DNA of 64,000 nt from an uncultured Gammaproteobacteria bacterium (GCA_964641245.1 CAZXML010000005.1:2831-66830); one strand, 5' to 3'; counted from the stretch's first letter, positions 36,001 through 42,000 are shown. Numbers: made by a program.

Positions 36001-39000
36001 TGAAGTTAAGATAAAATCAGCCAACGCGTCGGAAACTACTATATGGCCCTCTCCGTTAAAATGGCCGGTTCCGTGCTTGTACATTTCTTTATTTTCCGAT
36101 ACATTTTTTTCCATTATCGCGCGCAGGTTTAAGATTTTAATTGAAGGGTCTATGCCGGCAATTAGCCGGTCTTCCATTCCTTTCGGATTTACATTTAAAT
36201 CTTTTAACTTAGGATAATCATTTTTGAATGTATTTAATAAATTATTACTTACAGTCAGGCCATCGGGTATAAACATAGCCACGAACTTTACCCCGTCCGC
36301 GTCCGTCTGTTTTTTAAAATTATTTACCAGTTCGGAACTGAATTTAAGATACTGCGCGCGTTCTTCGTCCAGCGGATCCAGATAGTAATAAATATTGAAC
36401 GGAACCACCAACCCTAATTCACCCTTAACCGGCGCGCGATATAGCCCAAGCTTAACAGCAAAACCATTCAGCCACGGACTGCTTCTGACTACACGGTCGG
36501 CAAACCGGATAATCGCCGACTTCCGGTATATTCTGTCTTTAAGCGCCACAAAATTCTTTACTTGCGTGGCGTAATATTGAGGAAAAGAGTTCCACGATTC
36601 TTTTGAAGCCAGCATTTCATCTTTATGGCTGTAGTTTAAACTGTTGTCTGAAATATCATTGCCCAGATAAAAACTTAAAACAACAACATCCGGATGATAT
36701 TTTTGCGCGTATTTTTCATAATACTTCATTTCTTCTACCGTACCCACGCCGCCTAAACCAAAATTTAACACTTCAACTTTATTGTATGTGGAGCTGGGGT
36801 TGGCCAAAATTAAATTCTGAAGCTTTTGAGATAATAAATAAGGAAAATTTTTATCATAATCAACCCCGGTTGCCGCCACATAGGAATCTCCCAAAACCAC
36901 CACTCTTAAAGTTCCGCCGGCTTTTTCTTCGCTTAAATCATCCCCCAAAAAACCTAAACTGTTAATTTTGATGTGATATTTTTTGTAATCTTCGTTGTCC
37001 AGGAAATATTTATCCGTATTGGGCCTGTAAATCCCCATGCCGTCTTTATTTACCATCCAAAGCGCGACATAATTTTGTTTTTCAAAAAGACGAAGTATGC
37101 CCTCTATAGCCACAAGGGAAATAAGAATTGTAACCGTTAGTGTTAGTATGTTTTTTTGTCGCTCTGACATAATTTTTAATTAAAAATATGCAATTTATTG
37201 TAGCATAAAAATTAAATAATCGTCAACCTGATAAATAAAAAAACGCCCAACCATCTTGTCCGCGTTGGACTTAACAGTGGAGCGTGTCGTTTTACTCATT
37301 TAAACTACTACCTTTTCCAGTGCTCCCGCAGTTGGAACCAAAGCCAATCAACAATCTTGGGCGCGCCGGCAATGAAGCCAATCCGCTGGCTCTTGTCGCC
37401 ATTGAATGCCACCAGATCCGGCTGGGCCATCCGAACCGGCTCGCCTTGCCGATAGTGGTAGTAAAGCACTTGGCCACCAGCCGGCAAAACAAGCGACGGT
37501 GCTGTGGCCCAATCCCACGGCCACTGAGCTGGCTGGAAGATCGCATCCGAACGACCAATGGCCACGAAAGCAGTGCCGAGAGCGCAAGAACCGGCAACGT
37601 GCGCAGTCTGTGTTCCGTTGGCCACCACACCTACGAACTCTGAAAAGTGTTTCCGTTTGAGCGTATCAACACCCAAATACACTTGCGCCAACTTGGGGTC
37701 TACACACGCGGATACGTGCGCCAACCGAGGTGCGTCGAAGTTCTTTTCTCCTTCAACGAAGAATGTTCCATTATTTCCATCCCCAACAACAGTCAGTCCA
37801 CCACGCACCTCTGGCGCAACGACTACGCCGCCGTGGAATCGGCCGCCTTGAAAAAGGTTTGCCGCAACACCCCAATCAGCGAGTCGTCGCGATGCCCCTG
37901 CCGTGCCATCCACCGGATCGATGATTGCCACAAGCCGGTCAAGATCGGAAAAAACACTGATGTCACCGGCGTTGATGATATCTGGGCCAAGCGCGTCTTT
38001 CTCGTCTTCCTCACAAAGGAAGCAAATACCGGGAAAACTCTCACGAAACACTTCGAGGAGATATGTCTGGCTCTTTTTGTCAGCTTCGGTGAGAACCGAA
38101 TGAATACTACCATCCTGTTCCACCTTTACACTCGCGGTGAAATCACCGTTGAGAATCGACCGAGCATTCATCGCAGCCTTATGGGCGGCGAAGTAAAGAG
38201 TTCTTGCTTGGTTGGAAATCGGCATGAGCAACCTCCTCTGGTTGGTTGTGAAACGAACGTCCCCTTTCGCTATCCCGAACATAATTCGGAACACTGAAAG
38301 AGTGAGGGTTGGCCAAACCCTCAATTTGAAATCCGACAGAAGTCGGATGGCCGTTGTTCCTTGTGCCGCTCCTAGGTGTTGAGATTGTTGAGGAGATTCT
38401 GGACGTTGATCTCCCGCCAATCCATGAACAGCCGGCAGACGCCGGCGTTGATGAGCGGCACCGAGGCCTCGGGCCGGTTGTAAACCGGCATGCCGATGGC
38501 CCGCGAACCAGCCGCAAGTGCGGCTTGAACGCCATGAGGTGAATCCTCGAAGACGAGCTGGTTCTTGGGATCGATTCCCATTCGCCGCGCAGTCTCGAGA
38601 AACACATCCGGCTCCGGCTTGTGGTTCTTCACGTGCTCGGCCAAGACGATGTTCGCCTCGCCGATCAGCTCTCCGACGCCGGAGCGTTCGAGAAGCACCT
38701 TGGCCTGAACCATGGAGGTGAGCGAACCGATGGACACCGGCAATCCGAGATCCTGGACTGCTCCAAGAAACCTCAGAAAACCCGGCCTCGAAGCGACATC
38801 CATCGTGCTCAGCAGCCGCTCGTAGTGGAACTGTTTGCGCTTCAGGAGCTCCTCGGGCGAGACCTTCTTCTCGCTGAGCTTCCAGATGTCCTCCATCACC
38901 TTGCTGTCCGGCCCACCGATGAAATGCGGCAAGAACTGGAAGGCATTGTCGGTGTTGACCTTCACGCCAACCTCCGCCGCAGTGGCGAAGTGGGCGTTGT

Positions 39001-42000
39001 GGTGCGCCGCTTCCACGTCCACGACCGTACCTTCGAGATCGAACGCGATTCCCTGAATCTTCATGGCCATCTCTCCTTGTTGAGGTTTGGCTCACTTGCT
39101 GGTGAGTAGGTAGGCAGCGAGGCCAGCGGCCAAGACGCCAACGACTTTCTTCACCGTGAAAAGCTCGTGGTAGAACAGCCGACCGCCGGCTGCGGTGATG
39201 ACGATCTGAATGATGATGACCATCAGCACCACTTGAGTGATATCCATCTCCTTCCCGCCGATCATCTTCTGAAAGGCGATGGTGCCGATACCGTTGAGCA
39301 GGCCGGCTACTACCGCCAAGATGACACCAGCCTTGAACAGCGCTGCCTGATCAAATCCGCTCTTCAAGAAGGGCAGATAGACCAGGAGAGACACCGTTGT
39401 CAGGACGAACGATGCCATGATGGCGTTGAGACCGCTCGACTTCATGATGAGCGGCCAGGTGCCGAAGCAGAGACCGGCGATTACCGGCCACATCAGCTTG
39501 CTGAAAGCCATAATTGCTCCCCTGTTTTCTTCCAACCTACCATAGGCCGAGAAGACACGCCAATATATCATAAATAAACAAAAAAGTCAATGTTTCCTTT
39601 AATTTGGATACATTCTCTTAATTGCGGGGTATTATAATGGAATCTAAAACTACTTTTGAGGTTTCCACAATGACTGAATTTGCGCAAAATACTCTTCCGC
39701 CTGATTGCCAAGACTAGCAATTATTGCCGTTTGTCGTTCTTTGGGGTTAAAAGTTTTGTCATCCAACTTATCCATACGGACAATTTTATTGTCGCGGTAA
39801 TTATAATAAATTACCTGACCCCCGGCCGCTTCAACCAAAGCCGCGCCGGCGGCAAAATCCCAAACTTTCTCCTGGGCCTGAATACAAACATCAACCTTCC
39901 CGGCCGCCACCATTGCCAGTCCGAGCTCTCCCGAACGGGCTTTTTCTATTTTTTTGGAACTTTTATTAAGATTTTCGATAAATGCGTTAAACTCCGGAAA
40001 TTCAAACATACCCTGACCGACAAGCACATCCGTAAACCGTTCCTTTGGGTGCCGGTCTTTTATCATCACTCCAACATTTTTTTCCGCGGTTACCAGCAAT
40101 CCAAATTTTGGCGCGCAAATACTGCCGGCCACAATTTCACCGTCCTGAATCTTGGCAATAACAACCGCCCACTGATCAAGTTTTTTCATGTATTGACTGG
40201 TGCCGTCTATTGGATCAACTATAAAACCCGAGCCTTTTAAAATATCCGGATAATTTTTTTCATCCAAAACGCTGTCATTTTTTCCAATTTTTTCTTCCAT
40301 TAAAAATCTGGCCTCCGGGCGCGCCTTAGATAGAGAGTCAAAAATTGACTGCTGGCATTCAACATCGGCCGGCGTTACGTATGCCTGGATACTTCCCACG
40401 TTGTCTTCCGATTTAACAACTAAATCTTTTTCCGTAAACGTGCTCTGTAAACGAGTCGCTTCTTCTCCAACCGAGACCACTGTTTCCGACATCAGCTTTA
40501 CGTCCGGGGAAAATTTTTCCCAAACCTCGCCTGCATTTTCAAGTGACTCGCCTGTTTTTTTTGATTTATCCGTATTTTTTTCGGATTTCTCCGCGGCTAA
40601 TTGTTTAACTTTTTTTAAAATAAAATTAGGCAATTCATCCGGATTAGCCAAACCGATTTTTTCGGCCAGTTCTTTTTGCACTTCTTCGGTGCTTTTTACC
40701 CATTTATTATGTTTATCATAATCGCCTTCAGTAAAAATTTTTGGATATCGCTTTACTAAACCGGCATGCTTATCTTTTACGCTCACTAAATTACTGCCCT
40801 CTGTTATATTATCTATATAAAATAAAATTTTCTGCAATAAATTAACATTGTCTTTATGAACAATATCCAGGTCGCCGACCTCGTTAATAATCTCAACAAT
40901 TTCCGGTTTAACCCCGTGCTTCAGCAACACTTCCCTGCTCATTTGTTTTGTCTTTTCCACAACAGTCATCTGATTTCCCCGGCTGGCTCTTAGGGCTTCA
41001 ACCTCAACTTTTTTATTAAAATCATGTAATATGGCGGCTCGGATTAATGTGTCTTTGTCCGCTTCGGACAAGCCCAGTAAATGCGCAAATGCATCAGCTG
41101 CACCGGCTTCGGCTAGGCAATGCCTGACCACATTTGTCCAATCTTTTTGTCCGCCTGATTTTATGATGGCCGCCTTCTGTTCCGGTGATAAATTTTTAAA
41201 ACTTGGCAAATGTCCGCTTTCACGGTGTAATTTAATCAAGCTTAAATAATGCAAAGCGAGATTTGAAAAATATTCGCGGCTGGCCGTATCGTTTGCGTAT
41301 TCTTCCGAGTATGGTTGATTTTCTTTCATATTCGAAATAAATTTAAAATATTATTTATTTTATATTAAACAATACAATTTACCCGTTAATCCAATTTAAA
41401 TTTACCCAGGTATTGCGTCATTTTTTCTTTATCCGCTAAATGCTCGTTGTCTTTTTTAGAAATGATGAAATCGCCCAAAACCAGGTAGTCCATAAAGGTG
41501 TTTAAAAAGGTGTTAAACGCGTCTTTTGGCGACATTACGATTGGCTCGCCGCGAACATTAAAGGATGTGTTTATAATCAGCGGACAGCCGGTTTTATCAT
41601 AGAAAGCCTTAATAATATCGTAATATCTTGGATTTTGCTCCCGGCTGACCGATTGAATACGGGCCGAATTGTCCACGTGAGTTATAGCCGGGACATCGGT
41701 TCTTTTTACCGGCGCAACCAACAACATATACGGGCTGGGAACTTTTATATCAAAACATTCACCAAGCTTGTCTTCCAAAACTGTGGGCGCGAACGGCCTA
41801 AAACTTTCTCTAAATTTTATTTTTAAATTTACTTTTTGCCAATTTTCTTTATTGCGCGCGTCGGCAATAATAGAGCGGTTCCCCAAAGAACGCGGTCCGT
41901 ATTCCATCCGGCCGCCAAAAAGACCGATGACATTATTACCGGTAATTAAATCGGAAACTTTGGAGACAACCTCACCGGCCGATAATTTAGTGTAAACAAC

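Follow-up and report, generated by a model that had tools for sequence, protein, structure and literature searches.

A GC-rich phosphatase and putative transporter unit with a candidate riboswitch leader, probably acquired horizontally in a surface-glycan locus of a likely Candidate Phyla Radiation bacterium

Introduction

How does a short block of GC-rich genes, each led by a ribosome-binding site of a kind that its neighbours lack, come to lie within an array of glycan genes of about 40% GC, and what might its parts do? The locus that raises this question is a stretch of 64,000 nucleotides (positions 2831-66830 of contig CAZXML010000005.1, assembly GCA_964641245.1, catalogued as an uncultured Gammaproteobacteria bacterium), the whole of which is called the window here. 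A preliminary description had picked out an island at 37240-39565 and offered two explanations for it, a recent horizontal acquisition of genes that duplicate a host function or a chimeric contig. We consider the best explanation, with a probability of roughly 0.8, to be a horizontally acquired, self-contained transcription unit in the cell-surface glycan locus of a ~40% GC, probably Candidate Phyla Radiation (CPR), bacterium.

Composition and organization of the island

Nearly all of the window forms a single minus-strand array of glycan genes. It comprises a GDP-heptose set (GHMP kinase, SIS/GmhA, GmhB-type HAD and nucleotidyltransferase) together with a carbamoyltransferase, radical-SAM enzymes, GT2, GT4 and GT-C transferases and epimerases. 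Because the FtsW/RodA and bifunctional PGI genes of the window share a GC content of ~40%, this value is taken as the host baseline. Against it, the island stands out sharply: GC is 0.559 between 37243 and 39530 (0.558 over the span first described), compared with 0.380 and 0.385 in the 5-kb flanks and 0.404 in the window minus its two GC-rich islands. The fine-scale profile climbs from 0.34-0.40 to 0.50-0.63 between about 37250 and about 39550 and then drops back, the step being abrupt at both ends, and no other 2.3-kb segment of the window exceeds 0.50. The contrast of about 60% with flanks of about 40% in the preliminary description is thus right in kind and slightly high in value, 0.63 being the level of local peaks.

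Three genes of the IMPase family, the HAD-IA family and a small membrane protein had been described there, and all three were found, co-oriented on the minus strand and filling the island. In order of transcription, and with two neighbouring features for context, the locus reads as follows.

39562-39590, minus strand: sigma-70-type promoter TTGACT-N17-(TG)TATATT, 10 of 12 matches, extended -10; left end of the putative mobile unit
39533-39549, minus strand: short hairpin in the 5' untranslated region (UTR), CGGCCTA-TGG-TAGGTTG, read from the sequence
39092-39511, minus strand: putative half-size DMT/EamA membrane protein of 139 aa with a single EamA repeat; GC at third codon positions (GC3) 0.78; Shine-Dalgarno (SD) site GGAG
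38372-39070, minus strand: HAD-IA (beta-phosphoglucomutase-like) hydrolase, 230-232 aa; GC3 0.80; SD site AGGAG
38226-38352, minus strand: structured RNA leader of about 125 nt, candidate riboswitch, from nhmmer, covariance model and covariation
38349-38352, 38332-38347 and 38304-38322, minus strand: leader parts, namely 5' strand GGCC of the likely pseudoknot, helix P1, and helix P2 (loop GGCC at 38311-38314)
About 38261-38302 and 38232-38239, minus strand: leader parts, namely helices P3/P4 and the SD site AGAGGAGG
37308-38225, minus strand: IMPase-superfamily phosphatase, 305 aa, from a rare subfamily that has a C-terminal extension; GC3 0.55; SD site AGGAGGT
37237-37285, minus strand: intrinsic terminator, a 43-nt imperfect hairpin (37285-37243) and T-run (37242-37237); right end of the putative mobile unit
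39650-41329, minus strand: context, HD + IMPase fusion gene of host composition, 559 aa, from Pfam; GC3 0.40, no SD site
37197-37226, minus strand: context, a promoter of its own (TTGACG-18-TACAAT, with TG) for the host GDSL gene downstream, at 35989-37170

Read as one unit, these parts would run from promoter through half-size EamA membrane gene, HAD-IA gene, ~125-nt RNA leader and IMPase-family gene to terminator, and we judge it probable that they are a complete, self-contained three-gene operon of foreign origin within the surface-glycan gene cluster.

Codon usage and translation signals set the three genes apart as well. In a survey of 19 genes in and around the island (16 host and 3 island genes), as called by the Joint Genome Institute (JGI), GC3 in all three island genes lies above the 0.31-0.48 of host genes. 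The AGGAGG-like sites that had been reported for the island and found wanting in the flanks were confirmed, an SD site preceding all three island genes whereas a match of at least 4 nt precedes none of the 16 host genes. The same absence is seen in the 11 host genes examined on a related 393-kb contig (L027), and host upstream regions are AT-rich. The presence of SD-led foreign genes beside SD-less host genes raises the question of how both are translated in one cell.

The signals at the two ends were both real, but neither was quite what it had been taken for. The promoter had been regarded as a host-style sequence at the junction; its presence stands and its host origin does not, since homology with L012, L022 and L023 starts at 39590, exactly at the -35 box, and the L012 copy is placed elsewhere. 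The pairing of the hairpin at 39533-39549 is kept through changes on both sides in L022 (CGGCCCA/TGGGTTG) and in L023, as judged by eye. The terminator had been placed at 37235-37270, a span that covers the 3' half of the actual hairpin. This hairpin folds better than its shuffles (z-score -2.6), and a simple terminator scanner gave no call at 37237-37285 because the stem has internal loops. Nor is it a mere feature of the junction, as homologous hairpins (..AAGATGG..GGGCG plus T-run) accompany the IMPase gene on its 3' side in L012, L011, L004, L019 and L006. Homology from 39590 in L012, together with terminators kept elsewhere, therefore places promoter and terminator within the mobile unit.

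As to the host, the closest labelled homologue of the island HAD protein (80% identity) belongs to Candidatus Magasanikbacteria and lies on L027 (40% GC), a contig whose glycan genes are 68-72% identical in nucleotide sequence to those of the window and whose host genes also have no SD sites. Because this labelled HAD gene sits on a syntenic contig, the host is probably a Magasanikbacteria-like CPR bacterium of ~40% GC.

Authenticity of the contig

Abrupt compositional steps at both ends are also what an assembler would leave if it joined a GC-rich fragment of another organism into a low-GC contig, and contigs of relatives often break within the module (L013-L017 and L023, from several samples), as in a region that is hard to assemble; these contig ends fit a repeat that occurs in more than one genomic context per community and fragments assemblies. 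Several independent records make such a chimera very improbable indeed. An exact-match look-up placed the island IMPase protein on a JGI contig of 53.8 kb (sample 3300010391) and a Logan contig (SRR6155509), and a near-identical variant call, differing in its start site only, lies on a second Logan contig (SRR6155503); the literature, searched for the sample and run identifiers, gave no match. The JGI contig L001, corresponding to 27308-48225 of the window, is 99.976% identical over 20.9 kb that span both junctions, and because it differs by 5 single-nucleotide polymorphisms (SNPs) it is not the same assembly as the window. Two further assemblies, from separate Logan runs, agree with the window at 100% identity: L018 over 35521-40483, again across both junctions, and L002 across the right junction.

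The left junction, with fusion gene, promoter and membrane gene, recurs in a diverged relative (L023, ENA sample ERZ4903072, 87.5% nucleotide identity), and islands of like kind lie within contigs of up to 393 kb in related genomes, 17 contigs in all. The junctions coincide, moreover, with promoter and terminator and not with gene interiors. Since the junctions recur in independent assemblies and in a diverged relative, misassembly is very unlikely, and the chimeric contig that had been offered as the second option is rejected.

The module in other genomes

What remains of the question is how the unit arrived, and here its placement elsewhere is informative. L012 (18.5 kb) is a contig of a relative whose host genes are 65-84% identical in nucleotide sequence to those of the window; its module, made up of a membrane gene, a HAD gene, an extra DUF218-like gene and an IMPase gene, is inserted between GHMP-kinase and SIS genes that adjoin in the window. 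The homology between the two copies (84.6% over 1385 nt) runs from 39590 through the HAD gene and spacer and ends at the IMPase start codon, and the two IMPases share only 44% identity. On L027 the module consists of EamA, a cupin-like gene, HAD, DUF218 and a third type of IMPase, stands ahead of an MptA_B glycosyltransferase gene, and has a GC content of 0.47-0.57 and a GC3 of 0.48-0.69, against 0.27-0.37.

Module genes are not confined to close relatives. They occur in two metagenome-assembled genomes (MAGs) labelled Gammaproteobacteria, in a Ca. Udaeobacter (Verrucomicrobiota) MAG and another Magasanikbacteria MAG, on a contig binned as Methanosarcinales and on several unlabelled contigs, with cross-phylum protein identities of 65-76%. 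Their content varies around a half- or full-size EamA gene, HAD-IA and IMPase, sometimes with DUF218, HIT-like or P-loop genes. In each of the nine locus records checked (eight of them distinct, L004 and L005 being near-identical) the GC content of the IMPase gene exceeds that of DNA at a distance of over 1.5 kb, for example 0.70 against 0.46 in L009 and 0.52 against 0.37 in L011, and the module exceeds its surroundings in L024, L025 and L027 too. Given its other positions in related glycan loci and its presence in distant phyla, spread by recombination between glycan loci appears likeliest.

Some further arrangements were seen at these loci. In L022 (2689-2883), where the fusion protein has 79% amino acid identity, promoter and 5' UTR hairpin are as in the window and another EamA-like gene (MKTNRTLSGDFLILIAMAMFG...) comes after them, perhaps an alternative cassette at the same site. 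The spacer between IMPase and SIS (GmhA) genes is homologous across phyla (L012 13065-13228, L011 10898-11133, L004 10907-11107 and L019 1576-1800) and contains a conserved terminator followed by a promoter TTGACA-N17-TATACT and a conserved leader, so that the IMPase-gmhA junction seems to move as a block. The Methanosarcinales-binned contig (L010, CAYUKJ010000125.1; 3.5 kb, 55-67% GC) holds only HIT-like, half-EamA and HAD genes, the RNA and IMPase, and with this bacterial-type module alone it is probably mis-binned. Within the window, a second GC-rich island of like architecture lies at 6300-7650 (~0.59 GC), with a promoter TTGACA-17-TATAAT 3' of a host terminator, an SD-led lipoprotein gene, an SD-led half-size NDP-hexose 2,3-dehydratase-like gene at 6439-7053 and two terminator-like hairpins; no copy of the leader RNA motif was found in it.

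Age, direction and donor

Horizontal acquisition is supported by the shared junctions, by the foreign composition, GC3 and SD sites, and by an excess of GC-to-AT substitutions. It was not, as had been suggested, very recent, for three related genomes hold diverged copies at three positions. The synonymous divergence (dS) of the module among these genomes is 0.36-1.0, lower for the most part than in the glycan genes around it (GmhB 0.95, the others 1.6-2.8 to saturated), a host baseline made of genes that themselves recombine. Ratios of non-synonymous to synonymous divergence (dN/dS) of 0.13-0.16 in the module, ~0.15 for the HAD gene, indicate purifying selection. When third-position changes in the HAD gene are polarised by the agreement of the other two of three copies, GC-to-AT changes outnumber the reverse by 55:19 (12:7, 14:7 and 29:5 in the single lineages); in a stricter count the L010 copy, as outgroup, had to agree as well. 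From this excess we conclude that GC3 is decaying, as it would for foreign GC-rich DNA in an AT-biased genome. The spread of GC3 among IMPase copies, 0.47-0.92, suggests different residence times.

One could argue instead that the module is an old resident in which high GC is kept up by selection, or by GC-biased gene conversion under frequent recombination. It is GC-rich in every context examined, across phyla and with no GC-matched home genome found; it is mosaic, the window and L012 sharing membrane and HAD genes at 85% nucleotide identity beside IMPases at 44%; and copies at dS 0.4-1.0 still have a GC3 of 0.69-0.80. We nevertheless regard this as improbable, since GC-to-AT changes prevail in all three lineages, so that GC3 is falling; since the range of GC3 among IMPases is what different residence times would give; and since the SD sites, too, are foreign to the host style. 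The preliminary description had raised the high-GC host of an episymbiont as a possible source, and such a donor, with a CPR bacterium as the episymbiont, is similarly improbable. It would suit a recipient that is probably CPR, with its closest labelled HAD relative in Magasanikbacteria on a contig with syntenic host genes. The named HAD relatives, however, are all CPR or DPANN down to ~52% identity, the IMPase subfamily was met only in low-GC contexts or on short module-only contigs (species-representative genomes, two peptide patterns), and no Actinobacteria-like or other high-GC match was found, so that nothing supports this donor.

Acquisition by transfer has its own difficulties, and the recombining dS baseline is one of them. 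No donor lineage or GC-matched home genome was found, so that we only infer repeated transfer from a high-GC reservoir; the window has no tRNA, and the island ends show no target duplication or terminal repeat; and no relative with an empty site was recovered, the L022 contig ending 190 bp after the fusion gene. Together these weigh against the reading that we prefer. Of the classical marks of a genomic island, deviant composition and codon usage are present, and an integrase, a tRNA target and direct repeats are not; Pfam identified no recombinase among the three genes that fill the island. No close relative of the island IMPase was detected on the viral contigs or plasmids searched.

The IMPase-family protein and its neighbour

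The island IMPase matches Pfam PF00459 over residues 8-272 (78.5 bits, cut-off 27), and in an alignment of 10 sequences E72, E73, D103, D106, G107, W237 and D238 are invariant and T108 nearly so (motifs EE, DPxDGT and WD). This score and the metal-binding motifs are what it has in common with the wider superfamily of SuhB/IMPase, CysQ, HisN, archaeal IMPase/FBPase and plant VTC4. It stays far below every NCBIfam equivalog cut-off, with scores of 52 for HisN (vs 275), 42 for SuhB (vs 332) and 39 for CysQ (vs 229), and solved structures match at the general IMPase/SuhB level only.

A profile of the island family, run against 1.84 billion representative proteins, gave 99 clusters (50% identity) at E <= 1e-30, all of which align over their full length, including a C-terminal extension of ~50 residues (..GGxVxYYHYRxG..PD..FIAG.P..V.WL). 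Canonical IMPases reach at most 95 bits against this profile, with alignments ending near position 247. The host HD-IMPase fusion, which has relatives at 91% and 79% amino acid identity, scores 168 bits over positions 5-301. The C-terminal resemblance between island protein and fusion that had been noticed by eye (GGQVLYYHYRQGEPVRM and GGQVIYYNYRDNKIVRM) is real, as BLASTP reproduces it with 29% identity over 293 aa (E = 4e-24). Judged by these profile and pairwise scores, the two are distant members of one rare IMPase subfamily and not near-duplicates. The idea that the island duplicates a function of its neighbour thus holds as far as a shared rare subfamily is concerned, and a duplicated function is unproven at 29% identity.

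Gene neighbourhood also separates the subfamily from known IMPases, its links being to clusters for heptose and glycans and not to inositol, histidine or sulfur genes. In L009 and L010 a HIT-like gene pairs with the module IMPase. Plant VTC2 and VTC4 are a GDP-sugar phosphorylase and a sugar-1-phosphate phosphatase, and the bacterial pairing may be analogous to theirs.

The HAD hydrolase and the membrane protein

The HAD gene scores above cut-off for Pfam HAD_2 (59.4 bits) and Hydrolase (56.8 bits), and at 110.6 bits stays under the 153.35 cut-off of TIGR02009, which leaves it outside that subfamily. Its start is more likely the second ATG, at 39064, because this is better spaced from the AAGGAGAG site. 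Among 407 HAD homologues, every one with an organism label is CPR or DPANN, down to ~52% identity. Motif I (residues 10-14, window 39020-39040) reads DLEGT, with Glu at Asp+2 in place of the second Asp of the canonical DxD, and the L010 homologue has DLEGT as well; the enzyme may not share the chemistry of standard HAD phosphatases or mutases.

The 139-aa membrane protein matches Pfam EamA over the full length of one repeat (E = 2.9e-4, 21.6 bits, below the cut-off of 28.2) and has about five hydrophobic segments in a hydropathy scan. Its amino acid identity is 92% in L012-L017, 76% in L003 (a Gammaproteobacteria MAG) and 51% in L010. The subunits of the undecaprenyl-phosphate-aminoarabinose flippase, ArnE and ArnF, are small single-repeat DMT proteins. 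The island protein presumably resembles them, for it is short, has some five hydrophobic segments and is weakly similar to EamA, and its glycan locus also encodes GT2 and GT-C (PMT_2, MptA_B) enzymes. It differs from proteins of that type in that other copies of the module have a full-length EamA transporter with 10 transmembrane segments in its place.

A structured leader RNA ahead of the IMPase gene

The 146-nt spacer between HAD and IMPase genes occurs twice in L012, before the DUF218 gene and before the IMPase gene, at 89% identity. An nhmmer profile of these three copies found the element upstream of IMPase homologues in L003, L009, L010, L011, L004 and L019, whose proteins are just 42-47% identical to that of the window. 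From 11 core sequences RNAalifold predicted P2 (GAGGG/CCCUC), P3 and a 10-bp P4 (GUUCCGAA/UUCGGGA), with compensatory changes in 11 of 20 pairs. The resulting covariance model, R1, scores 83 bits at 38258-38324 in the window and found copies on which it had not been trained, in L026, L024, L025 and L010 and twice in L027. Over 16 instances 89% of cells are paired, against 45-58% with partners slid, and 13 of 20 pairs change on both sides, values that none of 500 shuffles equalled. The fold belongs to the sense strand specifically, as several of the conserved pairs are G-U. An SNP falls in the 5' strand of P2, at 38320, where the window has G and the JGI contig A, which breaks a G-C pair.

A pseudoknot is likely in addition. 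In 13 of the 16 instances the 50 nt upstream contain the reverse complement of the P2-loop 4-mer, against 13% in mismatched controls, and the matching variants (GGCC/GGCC, GGUC/GACC, AGCC/GGCU, GGCU/AGCC and GGCG/CGCC) share an AACG context. Complementarity within a single sequence is not significant, and the pairing convinces only as covariation across instances.

None of the 4227 families of Rfam 15 matched the window at gathering thresholds or overlapped the element at E <= 10. On seven other loci Rfam gave no match to the motif itself at E <= 1; sub-threshold matches in L024 and L025 centre on adjoining terminator hairpins and overlap the 3' part of the motif. A strict core pattern occurs at three places in 241 million JGI metagenome records: one is new, one is identical to L012 and one is a probable chance match (L021). 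Eleven of the 16 instances are followed directly by a start codon or SD site, and the downstream genes encode IMPase, DUF218, phosphoribosyltransferase-domain and P-loop proteins. Varied downstream genes, together with a terminator after the element in L024 and L025, make the pattern expected of a metabolite-sensing leader for a small regulon. The leader RNA is a candidate riboswitch absent from Rfam. With riboswitches and other cis-regulatory leaders it shares a conserved, strand-specific fold of several helices, covariation, a pseudoknot and, in most instances, a position in the 5' UTR or spacer ahead of linked genes; it differs from leaders of the Rfam type in being rare and outside all families of Rfam 15. 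At L007 1600-1845, L024 1606-1850 and L025 1-335, three IMPase homologues have no RNA motif upstream. These three have in common a promoter of another kind, TTGACA-17-TATATT, which hardly differs between them, and a conserved 5' UTR of ~95 nt ending in AGAAAGAGGTGACACCGTG.

A repeated element of 70-125 nt might alternatively act at the level of DNA, as a recombination site or cassette boundary comparable to the attC sites of integrons. The two copies in L012 flank the extra DUF218 gene as direct repeats, the homology between the window and L012 collapses right after the element, and in L027 it lies between successive module genes. Such a role in place of a regulatory RNA seems rather unlikely to us, however, because the element is always in the sense orientation of the genes and mostly ends just before SD site and start codon, because it has conserved G-U pairs, covariation in four helices and a covarying pseudoknot, and because attC sites are far less conserved in sequence. 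Neither an integrase nor IntI appeared among the Pfam labels of genes in the fetched loci, where no targeted search was made, and inspection of the window element by eye revealed no R'/R'' motifs of attC. The two roles need not be mutually exclusive.

Comparison with known mobile gene sets

Horizontally acquired islets in O-antigen, capsule and S-layer-glycan loci provide a close parallel, as there too deviant, co-oriented genes shared by unrelated taxa lie in a mosaic locus; the one studied here carries a heptose set of the GmhA/HddA/GmhB/HddC type. The island departs from such islets in being GC-richer, not poorer, than its genome, in possessing its own promoter, SD sites, RNA leader and terminator, and in having no integrase, insertion sequence, tRNA or end repeats. 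Integron cassettes are comparable as small gene units of varying content separated by a repeated structured element. Unlike them, the module has its own promoter and terminator, and its element is sense-oriented, highly conserved in sequence and paired with the G-U pairs of an RNA.

Proposed function and significance

The unit would move by recombination between glycan loci, and after arrival its composition would drift toward that of the host. Its two Mg-dependent phosphatases, of the IMPase subfamily and the HAD family, probably act on sugar-phosphates of the adjoining heptose or nucleotide-sugar pathway, and the HIT-like neighbour in L009 and L010 would suit a route from nucleoside diphosphate (NDP)-sugar through sugar-1-phosphate to sugar, by the analogy with VTC2 and VTC4. 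Transport of a sugar, perhaps the product of these enzymes, or of a lipid-linked sugar through the membrane is the probable task of the half-size DMT protein. The leader RNA, with its pseudoknot and two stacked helices, probably senses a metabolite of the pathway and would then gate downstream translation or read-through. We put forward only tentatively, as an idea more likely wrong than right, that it is a new class of riboswitch for a heptose or nucleotide-sugar intermediate (a sugar phosphate or NDP-sugar), in control of a promiscuous phosphatase-plus-transporter module that hops between glycan loci in CPR bacteria and also in other phyla. Some results fit such a scheme less well: no island enzyme reaches an NCBIfam equivalog cut-off; in L024 and L025 the RNA lies after a gene and before an intrinsic terminator, not directly ahead of a start codon; and pairing of the P2/P3 junction (CCUCACUCU) with the SD site (AGAGGAGG), good in the window, beats shuffles in only two of eight instances.

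As a horizontal-transfer island the locus is an ordinary kind of feature, and it is the RNA, the cross-phylum module and the rare IMPase subfamily that give it moderate interest. An uncharacterised IMPase subfamily is now defined, consistently linked to pathways of the GDP-heptose type. CPR bacteria, which are reduced and for the most part uncultured, appear to remodel their surface-glycan loci with complete foreign transcription units, whose foreign translation signals are kept. The RNA is a compact motif supported by covariation, and its ligand would reveal what the enzymes of the module do; were the riboswitch proposal true, it would be among the first metabolite-sensing RNAs tied to cell-surface glycan synthesis, largely in CPR genomes.

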